A stretch of 64,000 nt of DNA from an uncultured Acidobacteriota bacterium (GTDB taxonomy: Bacteria; Acidobacteriota; Blastocatellia; RBC074), in assembly GCA_963796275.1 (NCBI GenBank), contig CAWCKY010000002.1:672001-736000 (forward strand), written 5' to 3'. Below the pieces are notes generated by a model, which did not search any database, was not told the DNA's origin, and was given only the letters and a program-made list of their open reading frames with translations. Below are positions 14,253-39,862 of the stretch, piece by piece (the first letter of the stretch is position 1; each line of letters opens with the position of its first letter). A program made the position numbers and the translations under genes.

Positions 14253-16224
14253 TCAATACCGCAGCGCCATGCCCTGCTCAGCACTACGCGCGATGTTATG
14301 GCCCATAGCGCTCATCAGGGCTGCGACTGCGCGCAACTGGGCTGCCTGGAGCGATGCATCCCGCACTTCCTTAGCCGCCCCGACCGCGCCTTCGTAGGTG
14401 ACGAGGTTTGCCTGTCTCTCGAGCGCTGCCCCCAGCAGTTTGATTCGCGTACGCTTTGGCCGTATCGATCTGGGTGGTTGCTAAACCGCCGTGAAGACCA
14501 TACATATTTTCGGTGTAGGTACCCCAGCTTTTATTCAGATCATTGTAATATTCCTCGATGTTCTTGGTGCGCCCTCCGGCGCCTTTGATAACCGCATCTC
14601 CCTGCCCCGCCCACCTGATGAGATTGCCGCCATGTTGAAGAGTAAGGCCTATAAAGGCTCCATCCCCCATTTTGTTCCTACCCATGCCGAAGGGGCTCAT
14701 GTTTCTTCCACCGATAGTTAATGCCTCGCTGATCGCGCCCCACTTCTGCATTTCGCGTTGCTGGTGGCCCGCGACCCTATTGTCATTGTTCTCTTTGGTG
14801 CGACCGGTCATCATGGTGCGATAGGTGTGCATGTATTGCTGATAAGCGGCGTTATTCTGGAAGTCGCGCCCTGCCTTGGCGAGGCCGATCTGCTGGTCTC
14901 GCTGTGCGAAGAGCTGAGCGAGTTTCTCACTCTGCCTGGCGCGAATCCCCAGATTGCCCGCCTCCTTCCCCGCTTCGGCGCGCATCATCTCGGCCCCAAA
15001 ACCACCCAGCGCCTGCATTTGGTCGGCCATGTTAGTGATCTGTGCCGCAGCTGACGCGCTGTAGAATTCAACTCCAGCCCCGACAATCGCCCCCATCCAT
15101 CCCGAGATGGTCGACGATACGCTTTCGTAGATCTGGCCGCTCGCTACTTTGTAGGCGATCATCGGCGATGCCCAGAGCGACAGCCCGGCGATGGCCATAA
15201 TCAAGACTGCCAAAATGACAGTGTGATAAGGCTCCGCGCCGGAAGACATGATTTCCTGCATCGTCTGCGGATTCCATTGATAGACGGCATCGCTTCTACC
15301 CAGACTCATCGCGAGGTTTCCTCCCATATAGGCGAGCCCCCTGATCAATTGAGAGACAACCGGCCACACCAATGTCAGAACGATAACGCCCCAGGCGAAT
15401 GGGTAGGATATCTTTTGGGCCAAGTTCCGATCGATCGCCAGGGCAATCATCACCGGCGCCGCAAGCCTGACGGCGATCATCAGAAAGCCTCCGAGCAACA
15501 GAAGCCATAGATCCCCGAAGGCCAGTATCCCGCGTGCGAAGCTCAGCAACGAAAAGAGGAACGGCATATTGTGCGAGAGGCTCTCGAACTTGTTATTGAT
15601 CCCCTGAGGCGAAGAGACCACGTCGAGGAGCACTCCCAGAACTGCCTCTTCCCCACCTGGAGGCGGTTTGAGATTTTCGCCAGTTGGCTCAACAGTGAAA
15701 TGCCCTTTGGTGAATCTGCGGTAGCCTTCTTCGAAGCTTTTACGCTGGTTGTCGTAGAACCTATGGAGAACGGCGGTATCGCCGTTTCTGTTGCTCCCGC
15801 CCCAGGCGATCTCCTGACCGATGGTATCGAGAGTGTTGATGATGGTCGGGCCGGTTCCCATCAACGCGAAAATGATCCCAACTCTCCCGAACCACCAGAA
15901 AACATCCACACCGGCTCCTGCGTTTTCGCGCCACAGCCTGGCGAAGCCGAACATGATGACGAGCGCGGCCAGTGTCCAGGACACTTTCTCCAGCCACGGC
16001 ATGAGAGGGCCTTCGATCTCGCTTTGTAGGAGCGGTATGAGGGCGCCGGCATGGCCGATTAACGCCCGGAAGATATCCGATAAGCCACTACCTGCAGGAT
16101 TCGCAGGTGCGGGGGATGGTGTAGGCGTGGGCGTCTGAGCGAGCATGGGCAGGCTCACGCAAACAATTACCGCAGTAATGTGCAGGATGGACAGTGTTGA
16201 TAGCCTGAGTTTGCTTGCACGCAT
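14253..16224 (-). CDS. VirB6/TrbL/TraG-like inner-membrane T4SS protein with long C-terminal extension (frameshift near 14430)
   Basis: Multiple TM helices; follows virB5. Another frame continues AALERQANLVTYEGAVGAAKEVRDASLQAAQLRAVAALMSAMGHNIARSAEQGMALRY* to 14253, probably the true C-terminus. Confidence 0.7.
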
Positions 16225-16256
16225 GATTGCTCCTTGATCCTATCTTCTTATAAACA

Positions 16257-17108
16257 CTAATCGATTTTGCTGAGCGTCCTTTGAAGCTCGTCGAGCGCAT
16301 TATTGAATTCCGACCATGCCTTATTCATCGACTGTACCTGCTCCCCGAACTTGACGCGCTCTTCCATACGAATGTTGTATTGCTTCATGCGATTCTCGAT
16401 TTGGCATCGGAGATCTAATATCTCCACCTCAAGCTGTGCAATCAGTATCTCGTAACTGGCCAGTTCATCCTTCAGGCTGGCGATACACGAAGCACATTTC
16501 TGCGCGTCAGGCTTCCGTTCCTCCATATAAAGTAGGTCTGCCGTCATCTTCTGCTTCCCCTGTGCCCAGGCTTTCTTCTGCTCCTTGAGACTCATTTCGC
16601 GCTGCCACATCGCGATCTGGTTGTCCATCCGCACAAGCCGTTCGCGATTTGCGATCGTATCTTGACTGCTCCTGCCGATAGATTCTCTTAAATACTCATC
16701 AAGGTCTCGCAGATCGGCTTCAGGATCAAAGATACCGTTGCGAAGGCGGTCGTCGATCCTTTTGATCATGTTCAGGCGTGTGGTAACAATCGCTTCAAGC
16801 TGATCCTTCAACTGGAAGGAGGCGCGCACTGTCCTTCCAATGTTGCTCATCGTGGCGATTGCATTGTTCTGTTTCGCTACGAGGTCATCGGCGGCTTTGA
16901 GCACCCCGCCCAGTGTTGTGAGCTGCTCTACCAGCTTCTGGTAGTGCTCCATCCATCGAGCCGCCTCTTCGACTTTCTTTTCGGCTTGAAGCACGTATTG
17001 CGCTGGATCATAGACGGTCCATTGTGCCTGCGCTTCTTCCGGGGGAATGATCAGAATGCCGATGAACAACCCAAGTATGAGTTGACGAAGCAAAGATGCC
17101 TTTTTCAT
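16257..17108 (-). CDS. VirB5/TrbJ-like minor pilin
   Basis: Signal peptide ending AQA-QWTVYDPAQY (the V.DP.N/Q motif of VirB5/TrbJ/DUF4141), helical coiled-coil body. Confidence 0.7.
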   Translation of the reverse strand: MKKASLLRQLILGLFIGILIIPPEEAQAQWTVYDPAQYVLQAEKKVEEAARWMEHYQKLVEQLTTLGGVLKAADDLVAKQNNAIATMSNIGRTVRASFQLKDQLEAIVTTRLNMIKRIDDRLRNGIFDPEADLRDLDEYLRESIGRSSQDTIANRERLVRMDNQIAMWQREMSLKEQKKAWAQGKQKMTADLLYMEERKPDAQKCASCIASLKDELASYEILIAQLEVEILDLRCQIENRMKQYNIRMEERVKFGEQVQSMNKAWSEFNNALDELQRTLSKID

Positions 17109-19969
17109 TGCTCCCCTCCTCTGACGGTTTCGTGTTGAAAGTCTAAAAGCGATTCATCCACTTCAATCAATCCTGCAGCGGCTAGTCCTCTCGGATAGAC
17201 AGCGGCGAGCCATCCGATCACATCAGCCAGCGGCCAGCCGGTGAGCGACTGCACCCGCGCCCTGGCGTTGCGTTCATCCGGGTTTGTGGCGAATGTCCAT
17301 AGCTCAGCCGGTGAGAGGTCCATCTGAATCATTTCGACGATCTGGTCGAAGCCCGATCCCAGCACCAATACATACTGGGCGTACTCGCCTCGAACATTCC
17401 TGATAGTGCCTATCGCGGCAGCAGCGTTGTCCGACAGCCCGGCGTCATCAATGAGCTTCGAGCAATCGCCTATTTGTTTGCCGATGATCTTTATCCCGGC
17501 GGTCCTGGTAATATCGTGCAGTTCCTCGAAATCCTCATAAGCTTGCGTCGCCAGCATCGTCACCGCGTTCTCTTTGCGCCCTTGTCGTGCACCTCGTTTG
17601 ATGACAGCTAGAATGTGGGGGTACTTGTCCCTGATCTTCCAGACCTCATCGAAGACGAGTAACACCGGCGCGCGCGTCCCGTCTTCTTTCAGCCGCCCGA
17701 TAGAGCGAACTACACGAGCTGCAACCCGTCCGGCCAGAGTCTCCCTCACGTCCTGTTGGAAGTTATCCAGGCTATCGAGCTCATACACGTCATATGGAGA
17801 ATCAGTGGCGAAATCGGGATGCGTGGGCGCATCGATCCAGGGATGGGCGCGGTACTTCTCAAGCGCCACTGCAAGCGTCGCGGCGCGGTCTCTCACTGCC
17901 GGCGCCTGGAAAGGATAGCTATCGAGCATCGCCAGCAGGTGCGAATGGGTCGGCTCATGTTTCGGCTTCCCGTGGCCGTTGCGAGGAACCTCATTCCGGT
18001 AGACCTCAGTCACCACATTGGTCAGGATGTCCTCGGCGATGTTGTCATCTGGCTTGACTCTCGCCAAACGCATCGCATCACCTACCACGAAAGCGATCTG
18101 AGTCTCATCGGGCGGCTCGCCCAACTCTAGCCCCGGATAATCCCAGATATTGATCGTGCGAGGCTCTCCGGCGATGAAACGCAGATGACGGCTCCCCACC
18201 ACATCTACGTGCGGGCCGAGCGATTCGCCGAAATCGACCGCTCGGACTCTCGCTTCTGGCAAGGTTGCCAGCACATCATTGATGATCCGTGCCATTAGCA
18301 CTGATTTGCCGGCGCCCGGTTGCCCTAACACTACGGCAAGCGGAGAAGCGATCTCTCCGCGGTCGAAGAAGTCCAGACCGATCAACCTCCCGGACGGTGT
18401 TGAACACAATGTGTGAGGTCTCCTGGCCCCGCTCCAGCTCGATTCGGTCGGAATGAGCGCGGCGAGTGAGCCGGCGACCTCTGTAATCTCCCTCCCTGTG
18501 GGCCGCCGGTCCGCTTCACCCGCCAGCCCCCGGTGATAGATGGCGCGTATACTGTCCGGGTCTTCACGCGCCGCCTCCACACCGGGGATAGCCTTCATCG
18601 CCGTCACCATCTGTTCGCAATAGTTGTCGAGAATCCTGAGCGACTCCCTCTTCTCTTCCCGCGTCCGCGCCGACGGGCTGTAGATAAGAGCGTAGAAACG
18701 AATTTGCACCAAAGCCTCGCGTGATCCGGTAACGTGCTCACGCACGTTCTCGAGGTCAGCGAGGGCCACCCTGGATTCCGGTGTCTGTTTCACTCTCCCA
18801 TCAGGGCGAATTGACGAACGGCGTAATTGCTTAATGCGCCGGTCGAGGAGCCTTGTCGCCTTATTCTGGTCAGGGTAGATGAACTCCGCGACGAGGGTAT
18901 GACGAAAATTGAGCGACGGATTGAGAGTCAGCGCTCGTAATGCGTCGGCGGCGACCGATGGCTGTGGAGGCGTGAACATCGAGACGACGGCCGCCGGATA
19001 CAAACCATGCATAACGTAATCTCCCTCGGCTCGGATCGACTCGCTGCACAAATAATCCCGCACGTCGAAGCCGTGGACATCGGGCAGGACTGGAATAGCG
19101 CGAGCATTCTGCTTGTGCCCGAGGTAGACGGCATCCCACAACTCTTCTCGACCAAAGCGCTGCAGCGACAACGGACATTCCCGTTCGATCAATCGGAAGA
19201 CCTTCTCGACGTTTCTTCTCGCTTCGCGTTCATCGGCAATGAGCCGCCGCACCACGCCGTCATCGGCCGTCTCCGTCCACTTTCTGTGGAGCAGCCGGGG
19301 AATGTCTGTGAGGCGTTGCCTGCGTAACTCCACCCAGACGGCGGGAATAAAGGCGCTCAGGCCACTGTTGGTGTCGTCGCCTTTGTGCTTGACCGGCACT
19401 CGCACCCAAAGCGAAAGTGTCTGATGCCGGTAGGCTCCCACCGCTGCCGCGCCTTGATAGAACTCTACATTATTCATATGCAGTCCCGAGGCCTCCGGGT
19501 GGGTTAATTCCCCATCTCCCCGCACCCGGAGATGGGCGAGGATCGCATGCCCCGGATCGGGGCCGGATGAATAACGGAATTGGATCACGGTACCCGGCGG
19601 TTTCCCAACCGCCAGCAGCCGCGCTAGTGCGTCACAGTTGGATTCGACAGTATGGTCGTGCGCGAGCATCGTCGGAGCGAGTTGTGATTTCCAGGCACAC
19701 GTATATGAGCCGTCGGCGTGCCGCAGAGCGTCTTCGCTGATGCCGACTATTGAAGAGTCCCGCTTTCGCCCCGGAGGCTTTGCCAGCCTCTTCCTCGCTT
19801 CTTCATCCCTTGCGATGCGCTCCTGCAGGCGACCATCGTCGCTCAGCTTCCAGACTGTCAGGTCCCGGCGCGTCTGACGGAGCAGAGGCAATAAGCGCAG
19901 CGCGGCGCCGATGCCGAATCCGATACCCGCGCCGGCGGAGATACCGCTGATGATCAATGAAGGATCCAT
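17105..19969 (-). CDS. VirB4-like T4SS ATPase
   Basis: 954 aa; Walker A GQPGAGKS, LVFDEVW Walker B, GARQGRKENAVTMLATQ; between virB3-like and virB5-like genes. Confidence 0.85.
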   Translation of the reverse strand: MDPSLIISGISAGAGIGFGIGAALRLLPLLRQTRRDLTVWKLSDDGRLQERIARDEEARKRLAKPPGRKRDSSIVGISEDALRHADGSYTCAWKSQLAPTMLAHDHTVESNCDALARLLAVGKPPGTVIQFRYSSGPDPGHAILAHLRVRGDGELTHPEASGLHMNNVEFYQGAAAVGAYRHQTLSLWVRVPVKHKGDDTNSGLSAFIPAVWVELRRQRLTDIPRLLHRKWTETADDGVVRRLIADEREARRNVEKVFRLIERECPLSLQRFGREELWDAVYLGHKQNARAIPVLPDVHGFDVRDYLCSESIRAEGDYVMHGLYPAAVVSMFTPPQPSVAADALRALTLNPSLNFRHTLVAEFIYPDQNKATRLLDRRIKQLRRSSIRPDGRVKQTPESRVALADLENVREHVTGSREALVQIRFYALIYSPSARTREEKRESLRILDNYCEQMVTAMKAIPGVEAAREDPDSIRAIYHRGLAGEADRRPTGREITEVAGSLAALIPTESSWSGARRPHTLCSTPSGRLIGLDFFDRGEIASPLAVVLGQPGAGKSVLMARIINDVLATLPEARVRAVDFGESLGPHVDVVGSRHLRFIAGEPRTINIWDYPGLELGEPPDETQIAFVVGDAMRLARVKPDDNIAEDILTNVVTEVYRNEVPRNGHGKPKHEPTHSHLLAMLDSYPFQAPAVRDRAATLAVALEKYRAHPWIDAPTHPDFATDSPYDVYELDSLDNFQQDVRETLAGRVAARVVRSIGRLKEDGTRAPVLLVFDEVWKIRDKYPHILAVIKRGARQGRKENAVTMLATQAYEDFEELHDITRTAGIKIIGKQIGDCSKLIDDAGLSDNAAAAIGTIRNVRGEYAQYVLVLGSGFDQIVEMIQMDLSPAELWTFATNPDERNARARVQSLTGWPLADVIGWLAAVYPRGLAAAGLIEVDESLLDFQHETVRGGEQ

Positions 19970-19970
19970 T

Positions 19971-20315
19971 TCAATTCTCTTTGACGTTGACGACCCAGGC
20001 TCGCCTCGGCTGTCCCTCTATATCTCCGGGAAGTGAGTGTCGCTGGATCGGGTTAGTGAAGGCGGCGCGCAAACGGTGCTGCAGCCAGAAAGGGCGGCGA
20101 CCGATTCGCGCGTAGTTGAAAAACGCTATGGAGAATGCCCCGGCACCAAGTCCGCACCACAACTCCAGCGGCACTCCCCACAGCTTCAAGTTGAGTAAGA
20201 AAGGCACCGTATAGCTGACGAGCGCAGCGGCGAAGACGAACTTCCAGTCCTCGACACGGACGCCTAGTCGCGCTACCGGTAAATAGATGTTCGGCCTGAT
20301 GGGTCTTGGCCTCAT
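19971..20315 (-). CDS. VirB3-like membrane protein
   Basis: About 114 aa from MRPRPIRPNIYLP, two TM helices, immediately upstream of virB4. Confidence 0.6.
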   Translation of the reverse strand: MRPRPIRPNIYLPVARLGVRVEDWKFVFAAALVSYTVPFLLNLKLWGVPLELWCGLGAGAFSIAFFNYARIGRRPFWLQHRLRAAFTNPIQRHSLPGDIEGQPRRAWVVNVKEN

Positions 20316-20332
20316 GATTCTTATTCCTTCAA

Positions 20333-20800
20333 TTACCAAGATACCGTATCGAGGTTGACGGCATTGCCCTGTGAGAAGCTGTAGATTAACGACAGGATCC
20401 CACCGATTCCCATTGCAAGACCGCCCCCGACCATCTGCCTTCCCCAGCTCTTCTCCATCATGTAGTTGACGGCTCCCCAACCGATCCCGGCCACGCCGAG
20501 CAAGAACAGTAGATTCCGCCCCCACCTGATGGCCTCGCGGACTCCGGAGCCCACCGCCTGATCGTTTTGACCGAAGATGCTTCCGCCCTGTACCTGCGCG
20601 AACGCCGGTTGCGCCAACGTCATGCCCACCAGCAGCGCCGAGGCGATCAGTGCCAGCGCCGGCTCGATCGATCGAACCAGCACGGCGAGCTGAATCACCC
20701 ACCGGCCCGCTCTGGCGGCCATCGAGCGTTCGAGCAGCTCGTCATCCACTTCACAGGCCGCAACGCGCGGACGAATCCCTCTCAAGCCTTCTCCGTTCAT
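20333..20800 (-). CDS. VirB2/TrbC-like pilin
   Basis: Leader ending AQPAFA-Q followed by two hydrophobic helices; first gene of the virB2-3-4 order. Confidence 0.7.
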   Translation of the reverse strand: MNGEGLRGIRPRVAACEVDDELLERSMAARAGRWVIQLAVLVRSIEPALALIASALLVGMTLAQPAFAQVQGGSIFGQNDQAVGSGVREAIRWGRNLLFLLGVAGIGWGAVNYMMEKSWGRQMVGGGLAMGIGGILSLIYSFSQGNAVNLDTVSW

Positions 20801-20986: not shown

Positions 20987-21769
20987 ATGAACGATAGAAA
21001 CCGGGTGAGAAGATTGAGATCGATCGGTGTGGCGCTGGCTCTGATCTTGGCGGCGGCACAGGCAAAAGCCCAAGGCAAGCAGCAGGATGACCACACGCGG
21101 CGAATGGCGGCCCGCATTGAGGCGAAGCATCTACGCTCGCGGCAAAACCTCGTTAAGCTGCTCCGCGAGCATCCTCAGTTCTGGCAGGAATTACTGGCAG
21201 TTGCGGAACGGCTGAAGACTGAACCTGCATGGCTGCTCAACGTGCTGGCGACAGAATCTCTGTTTGATCCGGCGACGCGCAACTCCCTTCCTGGACAGAC
21301 CGCCAGCGGCCTGATGCAATGGATCGAGAGCACGGCACGGAGCCTCGGGACGACAACCAGGGCCATCAGGCGCATGAGCCCGGTCGAGCAGTTGTCCTTG
21401 ATAGAAAAGTATTTCGCCCCGTTCCACGGCCGCCTCAACAGCATGGCCGACGTTTATATGGCCGTCTTTCGGGGCTTTATTCTTGATGGGAAAGACGAAA
21501 CCGTTATCGCCCCACTCAACAACTCGCGAAAAGAACAACGGATTTACAGGCTCAATAAATGGCTTGATTTAGATAAAGATCGGAAGATCACCAGGGGTGA
21601 GCTGGCTCTGGCGGCAACGCTGATAGGCAGGTTCCAACCTCAAGAGCCCACATCATCACTCCCCGGCAGGAATCTCAGCCCAACGCTGCTTGCACCCTCA
21701 GCCCCTCCTGACAGGAAGCCCGCGCCAACGCGATCGATCTATATTCGTCCAACCAAGCCCGTGGAATAA
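20987..21769 (+). CDS. VirB1-like lytic transglycosylase (SLT domain)
   Basis: Signal peptide; ATESLFDPATRN (catalytic ES) and ASGLMQW SLT motifs; EF-hand-like DLDKDRKITRGE. Confidence 0.8.
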   Translation: MNDRNRVRRLRSIGVALALILAAAQAKAQGKQQDDHTRRMAARIEAKHLRSRQNLVKLLREHPQFWQELLAVAERLKTEPAWLLNVLATESLFDPATRNSLPGQTASGLMQWIESTARSLGTTTRAIRRMSPVEQLSLIEKYFAPFHGRLNSMADVYMAVFRGFILDGKDETVIAPLNNSRKEQRIYRLNKWLDLDKDRKITRGELALAATLIGRFQPQEPTSSLPGRNLSPTLLAPSAPPDRKPAPTRSIYIRPTKPVE

Positions 21770-22549: not shown

Positions 22550-22882
22550 ATGATGGCAGAAAAAGTGATGGAGGAGAACGAAGATACTTTCAACGCCGAG
22601 GATTTACTCGACCTTCTGGATGAATTTATGGGCCGCCGCGCAAGGTGGGGAGGAGATACGCTCGAGCTTGACTCGGGACAAACCATAGCGGCAATCGGCC
22701 TCTTCGTTATCAATGTGGGTTGGATATTGCGGCTGGACGAGCATCGGTACATTCGCCTCCCGGATGAGGCGGTCTTGAGGGGAGAGCCAATCGGCGCGGA
22801 ACTTGGGAGGATATGTTCCAATGAAACAGCTGGAGATGGGCGGAGGAAAAGCAAGCGTCATCGAGGCGATCGTAAGCGTTGA
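22550..22882 (+). CDS. Hypothetical protein
   Basis: 110-aa ORF with an AAGGGAG ribosome-binding site upstream; no recognisable motif. Confidence 0.45.
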   Translation: MMAEKVMEENEDTFNAEDLLDLLDEFMGRRARWGGDTLELDSGQTIAAIGLFVINVGWILRLDEHRYIRLPDEAVLRGEPIGAELGRICSNETAGDGRRKSKRHRGDRKR

Positions 22883-23121
22883 GCCGGCCGCGCTTCCGCA
22901 AGCCCGGCCTTGTGGCACACGGATTGTTGATCGTCACATCGACAGCGGAGGTCAACGCGGCAAAGCAATCGGGGAAAGAACCCGGAGCCAAACGCAATGG
23001 AATCCCATGCTCGATTCATAGGAATTGCAGCGCCCGTGGCGGGATGGAAAGAGCCGCCAGGCTTCCTGTAGTTCGCATTTTGTGGATCGACGCCGCTGAG
23101 ACAGCAACAAAGAGAATTCGT

Positions 23122-23904: not shown

Positions 23905-23948
23905 CTATCAACGGTTCCAATTTGTTTCTCGATTTTAGGAGTAAAGAC

Positions 23949-27653: not shown

Positions 27654-27663
27654 ACTGGAGAAG

Positions 27664-30503: not shown

Positions 30504-31033
30504 ATCAGGCCGCGAGCAAAAGGCGGGTTCGAATGTCTCTCGTGATGTTCGGCGCATCGGCGGCTTCGCTCATTATCGCCTACGCGGCCGCGACCATCCT
30601 GGAGGTTTGGCAGCTGCGCGAGCAGACACCCCGACTCGCCGCCGACAGCATGGTGAAAACCCTCCGCGCCCATCACCGGCAAACGGGGCGATTCCCGAAC
30701 GATTTCCGTGAGTTGGAGGCGAGAGTCTGGAAACACAAAACCATGCCTGATTTCGGAGCTGACGGACGCAGTCTCTCGATAGCCAACTATTACTACCTTT
30801 ATCACCCGGTCAATGCAGGCGCCTGTACGATCTGGATCATCCCGGTGGGTCCGCGACGCGAAGAGGGCTCGACACACTTTTTGCTGCTCTATCCGGATAG
30901 CCTGCGACGATGGAAAGGCCCGCCGCTCTCGCTCGACGAGATCGGAAAACTTCGCAGCGTGCCGCAGTACGGCGAGATGAACATCCTGGGAATGACCGAG
31001 CAACGGCCGATCGATCTGGTTAAGAGGAAGTAG
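30500..31033 (+). CDS. Membrane-anchored hypothetical protein, pseudopilin (GspG)-like
   Basis: N-terminal TM helix then MVKTLRAHHRQTGRFPNDFREL and NYYYLY; overlaps the virD4 stop (GTGA). Confidence 0.55.
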   Translation: MNQAASKRRVRMSLVMFGASAASLIIAYAAATILEVWQLREQTPRLAADSMVKTLRAHHRQTGRFPNDFRELEARVWKHKTMPDFGADGRSLSIANYYYLYHPVNAGACTIWIIPVGPRREEGSTHFLLLYPDSLRRWKGPPLSLDEIGKLRSVPQYGEMNILGMTEQRPIDLVKRK

Positions 31034-31044: not shown

Positions 31045-34000
31045 ATGCGCGCGGTGGTCAGGGCGGTACAATCCGGGGGAAAAGGCGTCTCTTACCAGGC
31101 GCGCTATATCGCCGAGTCCGAGCTCAACCGCGAGCGTGAAGGGGAGAAGACGCGCCCGCTATTTAGCAACCGAGGCCATGACAGCCTCACCTATCGCGCA
31201 GCCAACCAGTTCCTGACCGGTGGAGAAGGAGATCCTCTGAAGAAGGACCTGATTCACCTAATCGTCAGCTTTGAAGAGAAGGATTTCGAGGCCCTCAGAG
31301 CGCACGATGATGAGCGCATAGCAGCGTTGCGGGAGGTCGCCCGCGAGGCGATGGAAGGTACGAAGGCCGATCTCCGCGTCCGCGACTGGAGATGGGTCGC
31401 CGGCATTCACCTCAATACGGATAATCCTCATATTCACTTTTTGATTCACAAGGAGATCGCAAGCGACGACCCGGAGCGCCTCCGGTTGGGCAATATCCCG
31501 AAACGGCTGCTGCCAAGCCAAGTGACGGGCCAGGATGGAGAGACTCACCCCACCGAGGGTGTAATCGGTGAGAATTTCGTCCGGGCGTTGGAGAGCGGGA
31601 TCAGCCTGCAAGCTCTGCGCCAGGGAAAGCTCGCGCCGTCACCGGCGCTCGCCTCGCTGCTAAAGGAGCTGGAGGTCAGCCGGACCGGACGCCAGGTGCT
31701 CAATTTTGAAGCCTCGTTGTACGAGGTCTCACTCCACAAAACCCAGGTGAACAAACAGAGGCGGACAAGCTACGAATCGCTTACCGCCCACGAACGCCGC
31801 TATCTCTCGGAGAGGATCGAGGAGCAAACACGGTCTCTCGCCCGCGAACGCGGTTCCGACGAGTCTGTTCTGCTCGAAGCGAATCGGAAACGTCCTTCGC
31901 TCGACGGACGCGGCCTGACTCGAGAGATCATCGCCAGAGGACAGGAGACCGCCTCCGGAGAGCCGCCCGACGTTCTTCACGACCCGAGGGCCGTCTTCAA
32001 AGATCGGGATCAAAACGACCCATACCACGAGCCGCCGCATGGCAAGGCGGGCTGGCTCTCGAAATACAGCCAATGGCTGCGTGATGACTACGAACGGGGG
32101 ACCGTCATCAAGGAACAGGTCCTGGTCATTCCCGCCGAAGGGCATGAGCTGAATCCGGATATCCATGACCGCGGGCTTTTTATTCATGAGCTTCGTTACG
32201 CTCTCAAGGAGATTCAAGATCCGGAGAAAGCGTCCGAGTTTCATCGACTCGCAACAATAATCGCCGGAAGAAACGCCGGCGCCGATGGACGGGCCGGATT
32301 CTTCTCCTCCTATTACGGGCTGCTTAAGAGGGAGGGAGGAGACGAGATGGGGCGCGAGCTCGCCCCCCACGAAACCGAGGCCCGCGCCGAAGCCCTGGAG
32401 ATAACTCTCGGCAAAATGCGTGAGTTGGCCCCACTGATGGAAGAACTGGAGACAGAGGTGAGTATCGAGACCCACAGACCCGATATGCTCGTCTCCCTGG
32501 AACAGGTTCGAGAGTCGAAACTGGCGTCCATCTCCGCCGAGCCGGCCTTTGGCGACCATGAAGACGGAGAAAAAGAGCTTGAAAACAGGCCAAAGGACGG
32601 CTCTTATGTCTTCAATACCGCCGCGCGCAAAGTGAATTTGCGAGACGAGAGCCTGCGCTTTCCGGCAGGACTCAGCCAGGAGACCAGGGAGCGGCTCGTG
32701 GCTAATACCCTGCCCTGGATCGACCAACAGATCGAGAGCGGCGTTAATCGGTCCGAGATATTGGTAGAGATCAACCGGTTCTACTATGAGTGGGCCGACT
32801 CCTCCAGGCTCACACTCACCGAAGGATTGAAGAAGGAGAAGGACGCCTATCATCGGATCGGATACTTCATCAAGGCCTACGCCGATGAGCGCATCAAGGC
32901 GCTGGACCAAAGCGGCAGGGGGGAGACACCGCGCTCCTTCCGCATCATAGCCGATGAGCCGCCTCCAGGACTGACCAAAGAAGCCCGGGCGCGGTTGGCG
33001 GAGGAGATACTGCCCTGGATCGATAAACAGATCGAGTCCGGCGCCAGCCGAACGGAGATATACAGGCGGGTCAAGCAGCAATTTCATCAAGTCGAAGTGA
33101 CGGTGGAGGATCTCGTCCGCCGTCCGGTGGCGGTTCCCGGCCTCTCTCGAGAGGCGGCTGCGGAGCGCTCCGGGATAGTTCGCTTCTGCCGTGAATATCT
33201 CTACGAGCGGCTCAAAGACCTGGAGACGCGGGAGATCAATCGCTCTGAAACTTTCCGTGAGGTCCATCGACGAATGATGGAGGCCAACTCCGTCAAGGAG
33301 ATGAACCAGGCGGCAGGATATGCCTTCAAGGAGGGACACTTCGATTGGGATAGGCGGACGCTGATCTTCTCCGGACTTGCCCCGGATCACCATACGCCGG
33401 AGATGCGGATACTGCGGACCTCCTTCGCACTCAGCCGTGAGGACCGGGCCAAATACGTGAAACAGATCGAAGCCGGAAAGCGCGAGCCTTCCCCGGTTCT
33501 CCAGCAGTTGCTCGTTGAGTTGAATAGCCGGAATAAACCGGAGAGCATCGCTCACTACCGGGCCTCAATCAAAAACGAAAAGATGAGAAACCCCGGCAAG
33601 CTCAAGATCTACGAGCTGCATAAGCAATTGCCGACCTGGGAACGGGACTACCTGTATCTCAAGATCGGAGAGCAGGAAGAAAGAGTTTTAAGCAGACGGG
33701 CCGCCCTGAGTGAGCCCCCAGCCGCCGTCGAGGTTTCCAGCAGGTTCCCTGCCCCGCACGACAACGAGTCGCTTCGGCAATACCTGGAGGAACGAAAAGT
33801 AAAAGAAGCGGAGCTGATCAAAGCCGCTGCCTCGCGTTCGCTGGGAAAGCGCGATGAGATCGCGCAGCCGGAAGGAACAGAGAAAGAGCTGTTCAAGGCC
33901 TCCGACTCTCTCTCGCCGGAAGAGCTCGCCGCGATCCGCGAACGGGCTCGTCTTCAGGCCTGGGACTCGCTCGTGGCGGAGGAGGTGTTTGATGAGAACC

Positions 34001-37000
34001 CGAGCAGGGAGGCACAGGAACTGAGCGACGCCATCGCAGAGATGCAGGAGGAGATACAGCCTGAAGCCCGGCGCGCCGTCACGATGCTTGATGAGTTCAG
34101 CCTGAGGACGACCGGTCATCCGTACCACGAAATCCCCCAGAAGGCGTTTAACGAACTCTCTCCCGAGAATACCAGTTGGCTGGAAGAGCACAAGCAATTC
34201 GCCGATCGGAATCTGAAGCGCCTTTATGACGGCTTTGAGAAGATCGACGGTCTACGGCAGGAGATCGAACGCGCACGTGGTGGTAGCGCACAGATGGCCG
34301 CGGAGATATCCGGCATTCCGGCCGAGGCTCAAACGCTCGTTCAGCCATTGCCGCCTGGGAGAGAACCGGAGGCCGCCGCTCCCGTTGCTTCCGTCGAGAA
34401 GGGGACGGGCGAACCACAGAAACCGCATCCTGTCCGCCGCACATTCGGCGAGCCTTCACGCGAAAGCCGGTCCTACCGTGAATACACGGCGGCGGCGGCG
34501 GAGATCGAGCGGCAGTTGATCGAAGAAGCAATTCGGGAAAAACGGACCATGACGAAAGACCAGCCGGAGATCACGACGGCCGATATTCTGCTCGCCCGCG
34601 AAGAGAAGCTCAGGATCCGCGCCGCCGCCACCAGGCGTGCCCTGACGCGCCTGGAGCCGCAAAGGATCCTGGGAAACGACCCGGCGGCGATACCGCTTCT
34701 CAAACTGCAAGGGACGGTGATACTCCTGCGGGACGAGGCGCAATCACGAGCGCGGGAGTCTGCACGAGAAGTCGACGCATTCATTCGGTCGCGGGGGCTT
34801 GAGCGTTTCATTGAGAAAAAGACCGATTACTACTATCGCGGCGACCACTTGCCGGAGAGTGCGCTTAAAGAATTGACGGCCGATGAGAAGCAGGCTTTCG
34901 CGACTCTTGAAAAACAGGCGAGCGCGACCTTTCGGGAGTTCAAAGCCGGGTTCTGGACCATCGATCGGCTCAGGACGGAGATCGACCAGTCCCGCAATGG
35001 ACATGCAACTCCGGCGGTGTCGAAGAGCCGGGGAGAGCCGGGCGCGCCGGGAAGCAACAGACCGCCGGAAACGCGAAGCAGCCTGAACGGATTCTGGAGA
35101 GGGTCTTCGCCGCGACACGCCGGACAAGCGAACGCGGAGATCGCCGTCAAAGTGACTGAAGCGCCAACCCCGGCGCAAACGATGAAAGAGACCGGCGGGA
35201 GACAGATACCGCCCGCTTTTCCCCTTGGTGAGTCTCCAGGGGAAAGCCGGTCCTACCGCGAATATGTGACGGCGGTTGCGGAGACCGAGCAGCGGCTCCT
35301 CGGGGAGCTTGAGCGGCAGTCGATCGAAGCGGCTGCTCGGGGCAGACATGGCATCGATCAAGCCGGGCCGGAAGCCGCGTCGACCGATATATCCCTCGAT
35401 CGCGAAGAGATGCTCAGGATCCGCTCCCACGCCAGCCATCTCGCCTGGGAGCAGTTGGAGCCGCGACCGATGTCGGCCAATGATCCGGCGAAGGCGCCGG
35501 TTCGATCCCTGCGGGAGGCTATTGCGCATCTCCGCGATGAGGCGCAGCCGCGGGCGTGGATGGAGGCCTGGAAGCTGGACGTCTTCATCAGGACAAAGGG
35601 CCTGGACGAATCAGCCGCGGAAAAAACCGACTATTTCTATCGCGCCGATCAGATACCCAAAGGCAAGCTGGCGAAACTAACTCCCGCCGAGCGACAAGAA
35701 TTTGCAAACCGTGAAAATAACGCGGCCGCGGCTCTCCGAGAGTTCAAAACTGGCTTCGACGCAATCGATCGGCTCAGGGAAGAGATCGAGCGGATAGATG
35801 ATCGCGTCATTCTGGGCAGGGACATCATTGCACATGCGCATTCGGACGCCGCCACCCTCGATTTCGAGATCGCCGACCGCTTTGGACACACATTCCGCTT
35901 CGAGATCAAGGATGCGAGTGTGGGAACCAAGCGCAGGATATCCGACCTCGACATCAGGCGGCGGGCCAATGCTCACGGCGACCGCGCCGCCGATGAGGGC
36001 GGTCTTGAGCGTTATGACGAGCGCCTCGAAATACGCACCCGGGTATCCGGAGCGGATATCCTTGACCATTCAACGACCCTCGACGAACACGGCAGAAAAC
36101 TCGATCGGCTCACCGGGGAGCTGAAGGCCGAGACCAGGCAGGCATTGGCTTCTCATCTCCACGCTCAGAGCCTGGCAAGAGAGGTGGCGGAGAAGTACCG
36201 GATACTGGGAAAACCGCTCCCGACGCCGCTGGTTGAGCGCGGAGTTCTGGTCGAGGCCCAGGACGAAGCCATCGAGCACCGCCTCGCCGGTCACACGGAA
36301 AAGCTCGAATGGCTGCGCGGCGCGCTCGTTGAGGAGCATGGCCAACCGATGCGTTCGGATACTGAAATGGCGCGGCTCTCGGCGCAGGTCTTCACTGCCC
36401 GGACGGAGTTGCGGGCACAGGAGACCCACGCAAGGCGATTCGACGAGACGCGCCATCTCAGGCAGTGGGAGATCGTGATTGACCGGCAAGGGCAGATCGT
36501 AACGGACAGGCAAGAGGAGATTGCGGCTGATAAGCAGGAGGAGACCAGGGTTGAAAAGTATTCCCTGGCCCACATCGACCGTGAGATGAAGCGCCTCAAA
36601 GATGAGGCGCGGATAGGTGGGGACCGCGTGCTTCATCTCGATCCTGTCCAATGCAGAAACGCGAAGGCGGAGCTCGAACGCTTCGGCCGGATCAGAGACG
36701 CGGTGATCGAGAAGATCGAGGAACGGCAGGGAGAGCTTCGGGAAAGAGTAGCCGAAGCCCGCCAGCTTCACGATACGCTCGTTCGCGCCTACGAACGCGA
36801 AGCCATATTCCGTGAGCAGATGGGCCTCGAAATGCCTGCGCGCCAGTTCACCCGCAGTGAGTTGGAGCGCGCCGCCAAAAACATCGAGACGGCCCGCGAT
36901 GCCGAGGGATTGCGGGACCTCACTCGGGAAGAGCGGCGATTCAATGAATACGCCGATCCCAAGGAGCGGTTTAAGCCGGTCGAGGAGTGGGGCCGAGCTC

Positions 37001-37578
37001 CGGGCCGTGCACTGATGGCGGTGATGTTCTACCGCGAAAGCGCCGGGAGGCTCGAGGCATCAGAGCAACGTGGCGAGCGGCAACCGATGTTGATTGAGAA
37101 ACCCGGCGGCGCTCTACAGGTTGAGAGATTGAGCGATACATACCCGAAGTCGGCGGCCGAGTGGGCGCTGCGCCCGCTCCTCGTGTTGGTGAGCGCAAAG
37201 GCGAAGGCAGACCGTGACGCCCGGGTGAGCGTGCAGGAGGCATATGCCCAACATGAGGCCCGGCTGCAAGGTGACGTCGAACTGCATCGAGATTACCTGG
37301 AGACGGCGAGGGGGATCGCTTCCGAACAAGTTGCTGAAAGGGCGCGAATCCCTGGATTGGAGTTGCCGGAGTCTCCGCTGTCTCTGACCGCGGAGCAGGC
37401 CATGAAGCTTGAGATATACGCGACTAGACAGACCGATCCTGAGGTGAGAAGAGAGCTGCTGAGCCTGGCGCGAGGAAGCGCCCAGAGCCACTTCGATCCT
37501 TATTCACAGTCGCAGACGCATCCGGACGAATCGGAACGAGTACACGAAAAGACGCCCGAAGTGGGGCGCATGCGATGA
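31045..37578 (+). CDS. Giant relaxase (MobL/MOBP-type HUH domain) with repeat-rich helical C-terminal region
   Basis: ARYIA (catalytic Tyr), HLIVSF, WVAGIHLNTDNPHIHFLI (HUH); tail ends ..PEVGRMR; 2177 aa. Confidence 0.88.
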   Translation: MRAVVRAVQSGGKGVSYQARYIAESELNREREGEKTRPLFSNRGHDSLTYRAANQFLTGGEGDPLKKDLIHLIVSFEEKDFEALRAHDDERIAALREVAREAMEGTKADLRVRDWRWVAGIHLNTDNPHIHFLIHKEIASDDPERLRLGNIPKRLLPSQVTGQDGETHPTEGVIGENFVRALESGISLQALRQGKLAPSPALASLLKELEVSRTGRQVLNFEASLYEVSLHKTQVNKQRRTSYESLTAHERRYLSERIEEQTRSLARERGSDESVLLEANRKRPSLDGRGLTREIIARGQETASGEPPDVLHDPRAVFKDRDQNDPYHEPPHGKAGWLSKYSQWLRDDYERGTVIKEQVLVIPAEGHELNPDIHDRGLFIHELRYALKEIQDPEKASEFHRLATIIAGRNAGADGRAGFFSSYYGLLKREGGDEMGRELAPHETEARAEALEITLGKMRELAPLMEELETEVSIETHRPDMLVSLEQVRESKLASISAEPAFGDHEDGEKELENRPKDGSYVFNTAARKVNLRDESLRFPAGLSQETRERLVANTLPWIDQQIESGVNRSEILVEINRFYYEWADSSRLTLTEGLKKEKDAYHRIGYFIKAYADERIKALDQSGRGETPRSFRIIADEPPPGLTKEARARLAEEILPWIDKQIESGASRTEIYRRVKQQFHQVEVTVEDLVRRPVAVPGLSREAAAERSGIVRFCREYLYERLKDLETREINRSETFREVHRRMMEANSVKEMNQAAGYAFKEGHFDWDRRTLIFSGLAPDHHTPEMRILRTSFALSREDRAKYVKQIEAGKREPSPVLQQLLVELNSRNKPESIAHYRASIKNEKMRNPGKLKIYELHKQLPTWERDYLYLKIGEQEERVLSRRAALSEPPAAVEVSSRFPAPHDNESLRQYLEERKVKEAELIKAAASRSLGKRDEIAQPEGTEKELFKASDSLSPEELAAIRERARLQAWDSLVAEEVFDENPSREAQELSDAIAEMQEEIQPEARRAVTMLDEFSLRTTGHPYHEIPQKAFNELSPENTSWLEEHKQFADRNLKRLYDGFEKIDGLRQEIERARGGSAQMAAEISGIPAEAQTLVQPLPPGREPEAAAPVASVEKGTGEPQKPHPVRRTFGEPSRESRSYREYTAAAAEIERQLIEEAIREKRTMTKDQPEITTADILLAREEKLRIRAAATRRALTRLEPQRILGNDPAAIPLLKLQGTVILLRDEAQSRARESAREVDAFIRSRGLERFIEKKTDYYYRGDHLPESALKELTADEKQAFATLEKQASATFREFKAGFWTIDRLRTEIDQSRNGHATPAVSKSRGEPGAPGSNRPPETRSSLNGFWRGSSPRHAGQANAEIAVKVTEAPTPAQTMKETGGRQIPPAFPLGESPGESRSYREYVTAVAETEQRLLGELERQSIEAAARGRHGIDQAGPEAASTDISLDREEMLRIRSHASHLAWEQLEPRPMSANDPAKAPVRSLREAIAHLRDEAQPRAWMEAWKLDVFIRTKGLDESAAEKTDYFYRADQIPKGKLAKLTPAERQEFANRENNAAAALREFKTGFDAIDRLREEIERIDDRVILGRDIIAHAHSDAATLDFEIADRFGHTFRFEIKDASVGTKRRISDLDIRRRANAHGDRAADEGGLERYDERLEIRTRVSGADILDHSTTLDEHGRKLDRLTGELKAETRQALASHLHAQSLAREVAEKYRILGKPLPTPLVERGVLVEAQDEAIEHRLAGHTEKLEWLRGALVEEHGQPMRSDTEMARLSAQVFTARTELRAQETHARRFDETRHLRQWEIVIDRQGQIVTDRQEEIAADKQEETRVEKYSLAHIDREMKRLKDEARIGGDRVLHLDPVQCRNAKAELERFGRIRDAVIEKIEERQGELRERVAEARQLHDTLVRAYEREAIFREQMGLEMPARQFTRSELERAAKNIETARDAEGLRDLTREERRFNEYADPKERFKPVEEWGRAPGRALMAVMFYRESAGRLEASEQRGERQPMLIEKPGGALQVERLSDTYPKSAAEWALRPLLVLVSAKAKADRDARVSVQEAYAQHEARLQGDVELHRDYLETARGIASEQVAERARIPGLELPESPLSLTAEQAMKLEIYATRQTDPEVRRELLSLARGSAQSHFDPYSQSQTHPDESERVHEKTPEVGRMR

Positions 37579-37629: not shown

Positions 37630-38184
37630 ATGAAAAAAAACAATTCACTCAATCGCCCACTGGCCGCGCATTCGTCTTCGCTACGTCTTTATGAAGACAA
37701 TTATGAAGAGATTACGAAAATGATCCAGAACACAGACCGCACACATGCTGAGGAGGTTCGAGATCTGGTCGACGAAGGACTGCGCGCTCGTCGAATGGGA
37801 TTCGGGGGCGGCATTGGAGAGATCATCGGCAGATATGAGCAGTTGCTCGACCGGAATACCAGGGAGAAACAGTCCCTCACGCTAAACATGCGCGAGTTCT
37901 ACGGCTTGCTGCTCGAAACGCTTGCAGCATCGATCAGCGCGCGGCGAATGTCCTGGAACTACGTCGCGCGCACGGTGCTCAATCAGTCCGGATACTCCGA
38001 TAAACAGATCAAGGAACGGTACGAAGCAGAGATGCAGGCGTGTATCGACGAGCGCAATTTGATAGCCGACGAGTTGGAGCAAGAGATTGATGGACTACCG
38101 TCCGGCGATCAACAACCTGGTGACGCCCGGACTGCCTCGCCGGCGACGCCGGAACTTACGATTCGAGAAGAGAAGAAATCATGA
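37630..38184 (+). CDS. Hypothetical protein, possible ribbon-helix-helix relaxosome accessory
   Basis: SSLRLYEDNYEEITKM...THAEEVRDLVDEGL resembles an RHH pattern; directly after the relaxase. Confidence 0.5.
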   Translation: MKKNNSLNRPLAAHSSSLRLYEDNYEEITKMIQNTDRTHAEEVRDLVDEGLRARRMGFGGGIGEIIGRYEQLLDRNTREKQSLTLNMREFYGLLLETLAASISARRMSWNYVARTVLNQSGYSDKQIKERYEAEMQACIDERNLIADELEQEIDGLPSGDQQPGDARTASPATPELTIREEKKS

Positions 38185-38972
38185 TCAGACTCGACCTCGA
38201 CCGGCGCGACGATCAGTCCGGCATCCGCTCCCATATGGTCAATCTTTATCGCCGGATCGCCGGCGGCGGCAATGATTACGAACACAACGAGAGGAGCCTG
38301 GGGCAGATCCAACTTTGCGTAATCACGCTCTCGGCCATCGCCACGGGAGGGGTGAACGCCTTTGCACACCATCGTAGGATCGGTTGGATTGGTGCTAGTG
38401 TGTTGGCGATCCTCATTACAGGATTCGTCGAAAGGTTCTATTTTGCCCTCAGGCATGGACTGATGACAGTCTACAAATCAAGAGGGCAACGATTCGCAGC
38501 CAGGCTATGCTATAGAACAATACAGGGGTCGATGTGCATGAACGCCATGATCCTCTGCGCCTGGTTGACCGGGATTGCGATGCCGGAGTTCTTGAAACTC
38601 TGGAACCACTGGGCCCTTGCCGTCCACTTCGGTCTGGCTCTCGTGGGAGTTTCGGCGGTGCGGGATAAAGACGCATTAGCAGCCAGTCGTATCCGGGAAA
38701 TGCAGGCGGATGCCGCCGAACATGATATCCTTTCCATCCGGAGAGCCGCCGCCGGCAACCATCCGCTTCTGCTCCTGGCAGCCCGAATCAGAGGCTGGCT
38801 CGACGGAATGGAACTCGCCTACAATTTGCTCCGGGATAAACCAGGGTTCTCCGGCAAATATACAAATGAAATCACCGGCAGTCCACGAAATCTTTATTTG
38901 CCGGAAGGCGTCGAAGATGCTCCTCCACTTAATAGAGTGACAGACATCTCGGGAAAACGTCCGCGCCGGTGA
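38181..38972 (+). CDS. Multi-pass membrane protein of unknown function
   Basis: About four hydrophobic segments; ATGA overlap with the previous gene. Confidence 0.6.
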   Translation: MIRLDLDRRDDQSGIRSHMVNLYRRIAGGGNDYEHNERSLGQIQLCVITLSAIATGGVNAFAHHRRIGWIGASVLAILITGFVERFYFALRHGLMTVYKSRGQRFAARLCYRTIQGSMCMNAMILCAWLTGIAMPEFLKLWNHWALAVHFGLALVGVSAVRDKDALAASRIREMQADAAEHDILSIRRAAAGNHPLLLLAARIRGWLDGMELAYNLLRDKPGFSGKYTNEITGSPRNLYLPEGVEDAPPLNRVTDISGKRPRR

Positions 38973-39862
38973 AAGGGGAGCCTGAGCTTGAGGCCAACCT
39001 TCAGTCTCAACTCAGTTCACTGGCGCAAGGAAATCAATCTGAAGGAAGAGCGCGGGATGGTATCGAGCCGGGGAGACCTTCGACACGGGTTCTTCATGAT
39101 GAGGATGAGGAGTCAGACAGTGTGAATGAGACAGAAAGGCCGAAGGAACCTGGAAGATGGGATGAGGATACTGTGACAGTAACCGGAGAACAGAACCTGG
39201 AACACGGTGATGGCTATGAGACGTCCGGACAAACCGCTCAACATCCACTCTTGGATGGCGTCATCAATGATTGTGTCTGGCCTGGAGGAGCGAAACCGGA
39301 AGCACAACAGGCTGTGACGAAGTTGAGACACCGCGGCCGAGGGAAAGGGGCGCAAGAGATGGAGATTGGGGACGCACTCTCTCAGGAGGTGCACTCTCTC
39401 AGTGGGCGCATCTCTTCAGGAGCGCAGGAAACAGATTCTGCAGTTAAGCCGGGGCGCGATGACGGACAATCGGGGGCGCAGGAAACGGAGATTGGGGGCG
39501 CATTCTCTCAGGGAGCGCAACCGATTCGGGAAAACGGCCAGGTCGGGCAATGGCTTAAACTCAAGGACATTTTGCCCAAGGCGTCGAGCGCCTGGTGGAA
39601 TGCGCGTATTGGTCACGAGGGATTTACCATTAAATTGCGCTGGCGGGAAACCGACGGACAAAATCCAACTCTGACCTTCCCTCGGTTCATGTGGGAGCAA
39701 TTCGACATCAATAATAGAAGCGACGAAGAGGCAAAGAGAATTATCCTGGAGTGGATCGCCGGACACCTTAATGAACTCGTTTTGGATCCGGAAAAGCGCA
39801 CCAAAGCCCTGATTGCTGCAGAAAAACTTGGGATCGATCTTAATAACCGTCCGCCTGACTAG
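38969..39862 (+). CDS. Hypothetical protein with GAQE repeats
   Basis: GTGA overlap; disordered acidic N-half with GAQEMEIGDALSQ / GAQETDS / GAQETEIGGAFSQ; compact C-domain. Confidence 0.55.
   Translation: MKGEPELEANLQSQLSSLAQGNQSEGRARDGIEPGRPSTRVLHDEDEESDSVNETERPKEPGRWDEDTVTVTGEQNLEHGDGYETSGQTAQHPLLDGVINDCVWPGGAKPEAQQAVTKLRHRGRGKGAQEMEIGDALSQEVHSLSGRISSGAQETDSAVKPGRDDGQSGAQETEIGGAFSQGAQPIRENGQVGQWLKLKDILPKASSAWWNARIGHEGFTIKLRWRETDGQNPTLTFPRFMWEQFDINNRSDEEAKRIILEWIAGHLNELVLDPEKRTKALIAAEKLGIDLNNRPPD

Follow-up and report, generated by a model that had tools for sequence, protein, structure and literature searches.

The type IV secretion systems (T4SSs) of conjugative elements are typed by their mating-pair formation (MPF) apparatus. 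The accessible parts of PMC3548315 name eight such MPF types, describe a conserved virB gene order and place one acidobacterial system at a basal position in the MPF_T tree; Thermus and Deinococcus are not mentioned in these parts. Here, we describe a gene cluster found in a 64,000-nucleotide stretch of DNA (the window) on contig C2 of genome G000, which belongs to an uncultured Acidobacteriota bacterium of the class Blastocatellia. The part analysed, window 14252-39862, is quite probably the transfer module of an integrated conjugative element, with a T4SS lineage that is largely confined to Acidobacteriota, mainly Blastocatellia. A preliminary description, made from the DNA alone, had proposed two divergent gene blocks, i.e., virB2-3-4-5-6 on the minus strand and, on the plus strand, virB1, virB8-9-10, a MoxR-type gene, virD4 between two pilin-like genes, a giant relaxase gene and three further genes, which together would not fit MPF-T, F, I or G cleanly. 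The map of open reading frames (ORFs) confirms the two blocks, which part at ~20.9 kb, as well as their gene order (Table 1), and the start of the block, placed at 14253, is one base from the point (window 14252) where DNA homology to a paralogous copy on contig C3 begins.

Among the described systems, those of type MPF_T (Agrobacterium VirB, R388 Trw and IncP Trb) share with this locus the order virB2-3-4-5-6 plus virB8-9-10 (with B2 and B3 called by topology and position), a VirB1-like SLT protein, a two-domain VirB9 fold that matches TrwF, a VirB8-like protein, a VirB10/TrbI-like protein and a VirD4-type coupling protein (type IV coupling protein, T4CP). In contrast to MPF_T, VirB4 here lies outside the reference clade, there is no VirB11/TrbB (common, although not universal, in MPF_T), no VirB7 is recognised, and a MoxR-class ATPase and two pilin-fold proteins are found around virD4. 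Plasmid pCC7120alpha of Nostoc PCC 7120 carries the closest prototype T4CP, has no annotated VirB11 and shares the layout VirB10, two genes, T4CP, a small gene and a very large protein. In the plasmid, however, the two genes after VirB10 are without AAA_5, and the small gene after the T4CP encodes a relaxase domain. A PF12846 search of pCC7120alpha returned no VirB4, and the cluster was found through its annotation.

By VirB4 sequence, the nearest relatives outside the family are TraC-family systems of Deinococcota and Bdellovibrionota, not the classical prototypes tested. These T4SSs of Thermus, Deinococcus and Bdellovibrionales, which to our knowledge are not among the eight named MPF types, also give the best plasmid matches in tblastn searches, and the neighbouring VirB4 cluster is named from Bdellovibrionales. 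The Thermus/Deinococcus group is separate from the window's family in both trees described below and has no matches to the B8, B9 and B10 families, and its own ATPases are not of the AAA_5 class, being of the T2SS/T4P/T4SS family in the Thermus cluster and SpoIIIAA-like in the Deinococcus cluster. As a separate observation, Thermus pAA2-2c (L038), Deinococcus pDEIPR02 (L048) and the clusters P0322-P0392 make up a large VirB4 group of their own, apart from the eight prototypes, which may be another unclassified T4SS group; MOB-suite labels the Thermus and Deinococcus plasmids "MPF_T, non-mobilizable".

The relation to the MPF types was assessed with three references for MPF_T, two for MPF_F (F and Burkholderia TraC) and one prototype each for I, G, B, C, FA and FATA. 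We take p5482, Nostoc, pCW3 and pCF10 to represent types B, C, FA and FATA, respectively. The labels of F, R388, R64 and ICEHin1056 follow PLSDB typing and the accessible parts of PMC3548315. A hidden Markov model (HMM) of the VirB4 family scored 152 bits with Thermus TraC and 119 with Deinococcus. With the prototypes, the scores were 30 (F), 30 (p5482), 29 (Nostoc), 21 (R388 TrwK), 18 (ICEHin1056), 16 (pCF10 PrgJ) and 11 bits (R64 TraU), and pCW3 TcpF gave no match. The T4CP HMM gave 78.6 bits with Nostoc, 56 with pCF10, 42 with Thermus, 23 with R388, 23 with ICEHin1056, 17 with F and 16 with p5482. The profiles of known types do not capture the window VirB4 either, which matches TIGR02746 (4.3e-20; 71 bits, cut-off 567) and TIGR00929 (8.5e-18; 64 bits, cut-off 643) in part.

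VirB4 trees place the window's family in a clade of its own. A quick 68-row tree (LG+G4) has the window in a clade of 26 rows (support 100). In a 38-row tree (mixture model), it belongs to an 11-row core clade, also with support 100, and this core joins a sister group with ~25% VirB4 identity (family f31) and one more cluster in a clade of 17 rows (support 99). MPF_T (100) and MPF_F (98-99) are each monophyletic in both trees and lie on the other side of the midpoint together with the G, C and FA prototypes, while the B prototype stands beside the MPF_T/MPF_F side in the 38-row tree only and has no resolved place in the 68-row tree. Nostoc (MPF_C) VirB4, a single long-branched reference, lies outside the 17-row clade. 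As to MPF-I and MPF-G, TraU (R64, MPF_I) and ICEHin1056 (MPF_G), at 11 and 18 bits, fall outside the supported family clade, with one reference each. The presence of a VirB9 fold and of VirB10 is unlike what is expected for MPF_FA and MPF_FATA, i.e., no outer-membrane core complex; the best solved VirB4 relative (4AG5) and the best T4CP model (conju_CD1115) both score under cut-off. As far as the VirB4 sequences tell, the lineage is a separate MPF-level clade, outside MPF_T and MPF_F and remote from the other six single prototypes, and it is probably a new MPF-level variant.

The gene arrangement is a property of a family rather than of a single locus. A scan of one public genome per species yielded 164 confirmed relatives, the best 80 of which were kept for locus counts, and gene content was scored with HMMs built from the window and relatives. 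The genes for B2-B6, B8-B10 and the ATPase are held by 42 of these 80 loci, most of the others being cut by contig or flank ends, and all 12 families are found in 22. The same gene order is seen in five other genomes and in the two further copies of G000, which argues that the arrangement is not a product of chance. The proposal of a lineage-specific apparatus is likewise corroborated: 71 of the best 80 loci are labelled Acidobacteriota (52 of these Blastocatellia), 7 bear labels of other phyla and 2 carry no label, and plasmid matches are few and distant (65 of 72,556 records match VirB4 in tblastn, Thermus and Deinococcus leading; the 40 of the 65 listed show 22-25% identity and none covers 80% of the query). 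In a sample of 401 Acidobacteriota genomes, VirB4 has matches at E 1e-10 or better in 20, among them G000, and these are concentrated in the class of the window; six further matches, at ~25% identity, fall in family f31. Of the candidates scored in protein searches, 275 are relatives at E 1e-5 or better, and the few with a name belong to Blastocatellia or Acidobacteria. When 1.84 billion cluster representatives were searched with a profile, 395 clusters matched at E 1e-30 or better, 2410 at 1e-10 or better and 6057 at 1e-3 or better; ~65 of them exceed 330 bits, and the scores then fall to 237 bits or less. A literature search found nothing relevant on Blastocatellia VirB4 or on integrative conjugative T4SSs of Acidobacteriota.

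Seven loci (L052, L053, L055, L063, L095, L112 and L119), with VirB4 36-71% identical, come from metagenome-assembled genomes (MAGs) labelled outside Acidobacteriota, i.e., as Gammaproteobacteria, Clostridia, Actinomycetota, Bdellovibrionales and Ignavibacteriaceae, one of them on a 727-kb contig. Mis-binning or wrong labels could account for these placements, and so could genuine transfer beyond Acidobacteriota.

Three paralogous elements are present in the 9.46-Mb genome, namely the window copy, C3 ~44000-78900 and C4 ~1503000-1545600, with VirB4 identities of 100, 88 and 72%, respectively. Their common gene order runs from the B6-like gene through the relaxase to the SSB gene and a 657-aa ORF, so that the extent first given, 14253-39862, is too short; the conserved element continues at least to these two genes. 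The window copy is the most intact of the three. The C4 copy contains an insert of ~10 kb between the SLT and B8-like genes as well as stop codons within VirB4. In the C3 copy, the B10/ATPase region is spread over four frames, and a second integrase (C3:46615-48063) lies within the copy.

Pfam and NCBIfam scans covered 18 ORFs between 14371 and 39862, and were complemented by structure models and family profiles. VirB4 can be identified from its conserved Walker A (G554/K555) and Walker B (D774/E775) residues, invariant in eight sequences, and from its family profile, for which the best match in the PDB is the VirB4 C-terminal domain 4AG5 (1e-13). Phmmer searches of PDB sequences with VirB4 and with the 815-aa ORF described below gave no match at E 0.01, and the Bacteroides TraG model TIGR03783 matched neither VirB4 at E 0.05 nor any protein of the genome at 1e-5. 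VirB9 is identified by its fold: the AlphaFold model has two beta domains (predicted local distance difference test, pLDDT, 73), and the top ten Foldseek matches in the PDB are all VirB9-family chains of T4SS core complexes (E 1.6e-9 to 1.4e-4), among them TraK of F (1.6e-9) and pED208, R388 TrwF (4e-7), DotH, Xanthomonas VirB9 and CagX; the family scans gave no sequence-profile match for this protein. VirB10, with a transmembrane (TM) segment at residues 60-78, is identified by residues 241-388, which match PF12508 TraM at 25.2 bits (cut-off 25.1) and PF03743 TrbI at 23.9 (cut-off 35).

The assignments of the VirB8-like and VirB5-like proteins are supported. The former has a single TM segment at residues 134-152, and PF04335 VirB8 is found on 20 of its 30 nearest ESM Atlas clusters (scores 0.94-0.96). 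The protein itself has no Pfam match, and its alignment to R388 VirB8 with hhalign reached a probability of 0.1, single-sequence templates being too weak. Relatives align from about residue 100-127, and the true start is probably downstream of that of the ORF. The VirB5-like protein has weak N-terminal matches to TrbJ (E 0.0029) and DUF4141, and one relative matches PF07996 T4SS (E 0.0082), in all cases below curated cut-offs. The putative VirB6 has no Pfam or NCBIfam match, and its gene always directly follows the B5-like gene in relatives; the putative VirB3, directly upstream of virB4, has a hydrophobic segment and no family match and occurs in 75 of the 80 loci (blastp); the putative VirB2 has a leader and two hydrophobic segments, no family match, and occurs in 69. 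The view that components other than VirB1, VirB4 and VirD4 are called mainly by position and topology thus no longer applies to VirB8, VirB9 and VirB10, which now have a basis in fold, features or Pfam matches, and still applies to B2, B3 and B6. VirB1 was rightly recognised in the plus block, its SLT domain matching PF01464 (1.6e-6; 28.1 bits, cut-off 21.3), but it is found at this position in merely 6 of the 80 related loci. F-type TraN/H/U/W had been reported as unrecognisable, in agreement with the scans of the 18 ORFs, which gave no match to the F-specific TraH, TraN, TraU, TraW, TraF or TrbC; very divergent homologues are possible.

VirD4 matches PF02534 (3.5e-36), PF12696 (4.6e-19) and PF10412 (8.6e-18), its best NCBIfam model is conju_CD1115 (186 bits, under the cut-off of 250), and its Walker A and B motifs are invariant in 23 sequences. 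It is flanked by two small genes that had both been described as pilin-like. For orf246, kept directly after the ATPase gene in relatives, the model (pLDDT 83.4) comprises a TM helix, a linker and an alpha/beta domain; Foldseek gave no PDB match at E 1e-3 or better, and VIA-align of the domain placed type IV pilins as the top six chains with middling scores (Z 6.8-7.9), in line with a pilin-like fold. For orf177, which has an N-terminal TM segment and is kept after virD4 in relatives, the nearest Atlas clusters are unnamed and acidobacterial and the nearest named ones are pilin families (0.84-0.85), a weak lead toward the same label.

The component that sets the family apart is the ATPase encoded between virB10 and orf246. 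It matches PF07728 AAA_5 (2.5e-12; 47.4 bits, cut-off 22), and its best NCBIfam model is NF047784, MadB-family (1.3e-35, under the cut-off); a literature search for the name "MadB" returned no relevant paper. Profile matches in the PDB are midasin modules (4.8e-21) and NorQ (1.6e-9), and 20 sequences, the distant f31 group among them, show no variation at the Walker A, Walker B, sensor and Arg positions. The gene comes right after virB10 in 46 of the 49 virB10-bearing loci, and the other three end at the locus edge, i.e., it is found in 46 of 46 testable cases, usually with a 4-base overlap; in the f31 group it is located 6-8 kb from VirB4. The ATPase shares the AAA_5 domain and full ATPase motifs with MoxR-class AAA+ proteins (MoxR, NorQ/CbbQ, RavA, GvpN and midasin), but differs from these in being encoded within a T4SS operon, translationally coupled and without an adjoining VWA/MIDAS gene. 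The absence of VirB11/TrbB from the locus is also borne out: none of the three elements of the genome contains a member of the VirB11 family (PF00437, T2SSE), the sole such locus of the genome being on contig C6, and five of five relatives have their nearest match either on another contig or no closer than ~35 kb to VirB4. The ATPase stands where other systems may have VirB11, and it is a hallmark of the family. A literature search found no published association of a MoxR-class ATPase with a T4SS operon, and Acidobacter, MoxR, Thermus and AAA+ gave no match in a term search of the accessible part of a 2025 review (PMC12857230).

Two further proteins are related to this ATPase. An AAA_5 paralogue in G000 (C4:803400-804089), 38% identical, may represent the source family from which the ATPase was recruited. 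In the metagenomic protein P0228 (803 aa), the C-terminal two-thirds of the AAA_5 ATPase are joined to a full VirD4 with no orf246 between, which could be a Rosetta-stone hint of a link between ATPase and T4CP or an artefact of gene calling; a complex prediction for the ATPase and the soluble domain of VirD4, suggested by P0228, scored 0.00 and provides no evidence either way.

The preliminary description listed virB10 and the MoxR-type gene one after the other. Both are present in this order, but in the assembly they form one continuous 815-aa ORF because of one extra base near 26573-26577, as seen by comparison with an 89%-identical, 470-aa homologue (P0123). The base carries the VirB10 frame beyond its original stop (26623-26625), itself overlapping the ATPase ATG at 26625, and replaces the last ~17 residues of VirB10. 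Among the 120 best homologues of the 815-aa ORF, 119 are VirB10-only proteins of 448-480 aa and the remaining one consists of an AAA_5 part and a T4CP. The extra base is absent from both soil-metagenome contigs that cover the site (~98% identical, from two studies), the two genes are separate in five other genomes, mostly with a 4-base overlap, and no ORF in the 80 loci matches both the VirB10 and ATPase HMMs. The ATPase retains its own ATG and an upstream GGAG. A genuine VirB10-ATPase fusion was also considered and is ruled out by the VirB10-only homologues, the 80 loci without a fusion and the metagenome contigs; together, the homologue, locus and metagenome evidence points to a private frameshift or an assembly error, not to a designed fusion.

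The relaxase is much longer than its relatives (2177 vs ~800 aa). Its N-terminus matches MobL, PF03432 (24.1 bits, cut-off 24.6), MobP3 (23.8, cut-off 150) and MobP2, the family HMM matches R64 NikB (8.4e-4), and five aligned sequences share a conserved Tyr and a His-rich motif, presumably motif III of MOBP/Q. The rest of the protein is E/R/A-rich without a domain match, and blastp of the sequence against itself gave no internal repeats; overlapping tblastn matches probably result from the E/R/A-rich composition. The three ORFs that follow (37630-39862) are found in the C3 and C4 copies at 29-65% identity. Further on, SSB (PF00436, 6.2e-35) and the 657-aa ORF are present in both of these copies and also in genomes G354 and G378. 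A 370-aa tyrosine integrase adjoins the B6 end of the C3 copy, and homologues with 45-47% identity are found at the same place in two MAG loci (L056 and L088).

In the mechanism that we propose, the VirB2/3/4/5/6-like and VirB8/9/10-like proteins would form an envelope-spanning channel, VirD4 and the MOBP-like relaxase would process and recruit DNA, and the cytoplasmic MoxR-class AAA+ ATPase would replace the traffic ATPase of VirB11 type. The latter may act as a hexamer that remodels or assembles the inner-membrane and coupling part of the machine; it could help in assembling or gating the complex, or in making the large relaxase ready for transfer. We infer both this role of the ATPase and actual transfer activity from the gene content. 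A more far-reaching possibility, which we regard as doubtful, is that the family constitutes a ninth, Acidobacteriota-specific MPF class in which the MoxR-class remodeller occupies the VirB11 slot and the two pilin-fold proteins bracket the T4CP as a recruitment or gating module; if true, there would be a T4SS with a non-RecA-type motor and with pilin-like parts as obligatory core components.

The readings with which the proposed transfer module has to be compared differ in what they make of the VirB4 lineage, of the state of the window copy and of the substrate. According to one of them, the locus is a divergent, deep-branching member of MPF_T ("Acidobacteria basal to MPF_T", Guglielmini et al.) that has lost VirB11 and gained an accessory ATPase. 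Genes virB2-3-4-5-6, virB8-9-10 and SLT do make up the MPF_T pattern, this order and one basal acidobacterial MPF_T system are given in the accessible parts of PMC3548315, the B5 family HMM matches R388 VirB5 (E 0.0025), and TrwK ranks second among the solved relatives of the VirB4 profile (4e-5). Nevertheless, we consider this origin improbable: R388 TrwK, at 21 bits, scores below the F, Bacteroides and Nostoc prototypes, in both trees the three MPF_T references group by themselves at the far side, the TIGR00929 score of 64 bits compares with a cut-off of 643, and the T4CP has its closest prototypes in Nostoc and pCF10 rather than in R388. In an approximately unbiased (AU) test, holding the 17 rows together with MPF_T cost 9.6 log-likelihood units and was rejected (p-AU 0.0196). 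The misfit claimed for MPF-T and MPF-F stands, with VirB4 outside both reference clades. Alternatively, the system could serve protein secretion or DNA release or uptake, as may be suggested by the unusual accessories (two pilin-fold proteins and an AAA+ ATPase) and by the fact that DNA transfer is predicted from genes alone. Such a function is highly improbable, as the relaxase gene adjoins virD4 in all three copies of G000 and in four other genomes, SSB is kept in the element, an integrase flanks three related copies, and the occurrence of several diverged copies per genome is in keeping with a mobile element. Finally, the family may be real and the window copy a defective, immobilised remnant that no longer transfers. 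This we find unlikely, yet clearly less so than the two readings above: the extra base, lacking in the metagenome contigs and in the VirB10-only homologues, joins virB10 to the ATPase frame and swaps the end of VirB10, the window has no match to PF00589 or PF00239, and the C3 and C4 copies contain multiple frame breaks and stops. All other core ORFs of the window are, however, open and of full length, the ATPase has its own start and GGAG, the extra base could be an assembly error, and a recombinase could be of an unrecognised kind or lie beyond the window.

Some of these observations, together with others, weigh against the proposed transfer module of a separate, functional conjugative lineage. 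The frameshift affects virB10 in the window copy itself, and the C3 and C4 copies are interrupted by several frame breaks and stops, so that either these copies may be decaying or the assembly may contain indel errors. Neither a PF00589 or PF00239 recombinase in the 64-kb window nor a repeat of the 3' end of the adjacent tRNA-Pro on contig C2 was found, and the window copy may therefore not be able to excise. The calls of B2, B3 and B6 are made from topology and position, and all model matches of the relaxase fall under curated cut-offs. A VWA partner is usual for MoxR ATPases, and no neighbouring ORF matches a VWA/MIDAS gene. In the trees, I, G, B, C, FA and FATA are single long-branched prototypes and the deep nodes are without resolution, with TraU and PrgJ as long branches whose position, on the same side of the midpoint as the family, has no support. 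The grouping used in the AU test was named after the first tree had been seen, prompted by the statement in PMC3548315. A search of sequencing runs found no RNA run that holds the stretch and no run that holds half or more of its words.

Acidobacteriota are among the most abundant soil bacteria, and we know of no experimental work on how they exchange DNA. Standard MPF typing and the tools derived from it would mislabel or miss the present system; MOB-suite calls even the Thermus and Nostoc reference plasmids "MPF_T". A conserved, lineage-specific system offers a handle for detecting integrative conjugative elements and gene flow in soil metagenomes, and a possible basis for genetic tools in Blastocatellia. 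An invariable MoxR-class ATPase would add a novel type of energising or assembly component to T4SSs.

Table 1. Features of the putative transfer module and of two conserved genes downstream, in window positions.
Feature	Position	Strand	Remark
VirB6-like polytopic membrane protein	14371-16224	-	617 aa; 5-6 hydrophobic segments
VirB5/TrbJ-like secreted coiled-coil protein	16257-17108	-	283 aa; signal peptide and coiled coil
VirB4 ATPase (P0002)	17105-19969	-	954 aa
VirB3-like small membrane protein (putative)	~19971-20321	-	start uncertain; open frame reaches 20702
VirB2-like pilin candidate	20333-20800	-	155 aa as longest ORF
SLT lytic transglycosylase, VirB1-like	20987-21769	+	PF01464
VirB8-like bitopic protein	22879-23904	+	341-aa ORF
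VirB9/TraK/DotH-family outer-membrane core protein	23922-25175	+	417 aa, secreted
815-aa ORF, VirB10 and AAA_5 ATPase	25206-27653	+	TrbI/TraM at residues 241-388, AAA_5 at 526-686
VirB10-like part	25206-26625	+	ancestral stop 26623-26625, out of frame in assembly
Extra-base site joining virB10 to ATPase frame	26573-26577	+	
MoxR-class AAA+ ATPase	26625-27653	+	342 aa from own ATG
orf246, bitopic, type IV pilin-like fold	27592-28332	+	
VirD4-type coupling protein	28350-30503	+	717 aa
orf177, small bitopic protein, weakly pilin-like	30500-31033	+	
Relaxase	31045-37578	+	2177 aa
Three ORFs without family matches	37630-39862	+	184, 263 and 297 aa
SSB (47834-48841) and conserved 657-aa ORF (49361-51334)	47834-51334	-	same element, beyond 39862

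The GC content is 0.58-0.62 in the plus block, compared with 0.53-0.55 across the contigs of the genome. Past the conserved 657-aa ORF, six small ORFs of 92-108 aa are found on one strand (window 51495-54372, minus), in a region of ~3 kb without any ORF of at least 120 aa. Cargo inside the element (window 43301-46200, minus) includes an alginate-export-family porin and an RPE65-family carotenoid oxygenase; a 95%-identical copy of the porin is located at C6:2650429-2651883 of the same genome. Between tRNA-Pro and the element, two adjoining ORFs (window 11747-13079, minus) each match part of PF00144 Beta-lactamase, and the pair resembles one serine-hydrolase gene split in two.

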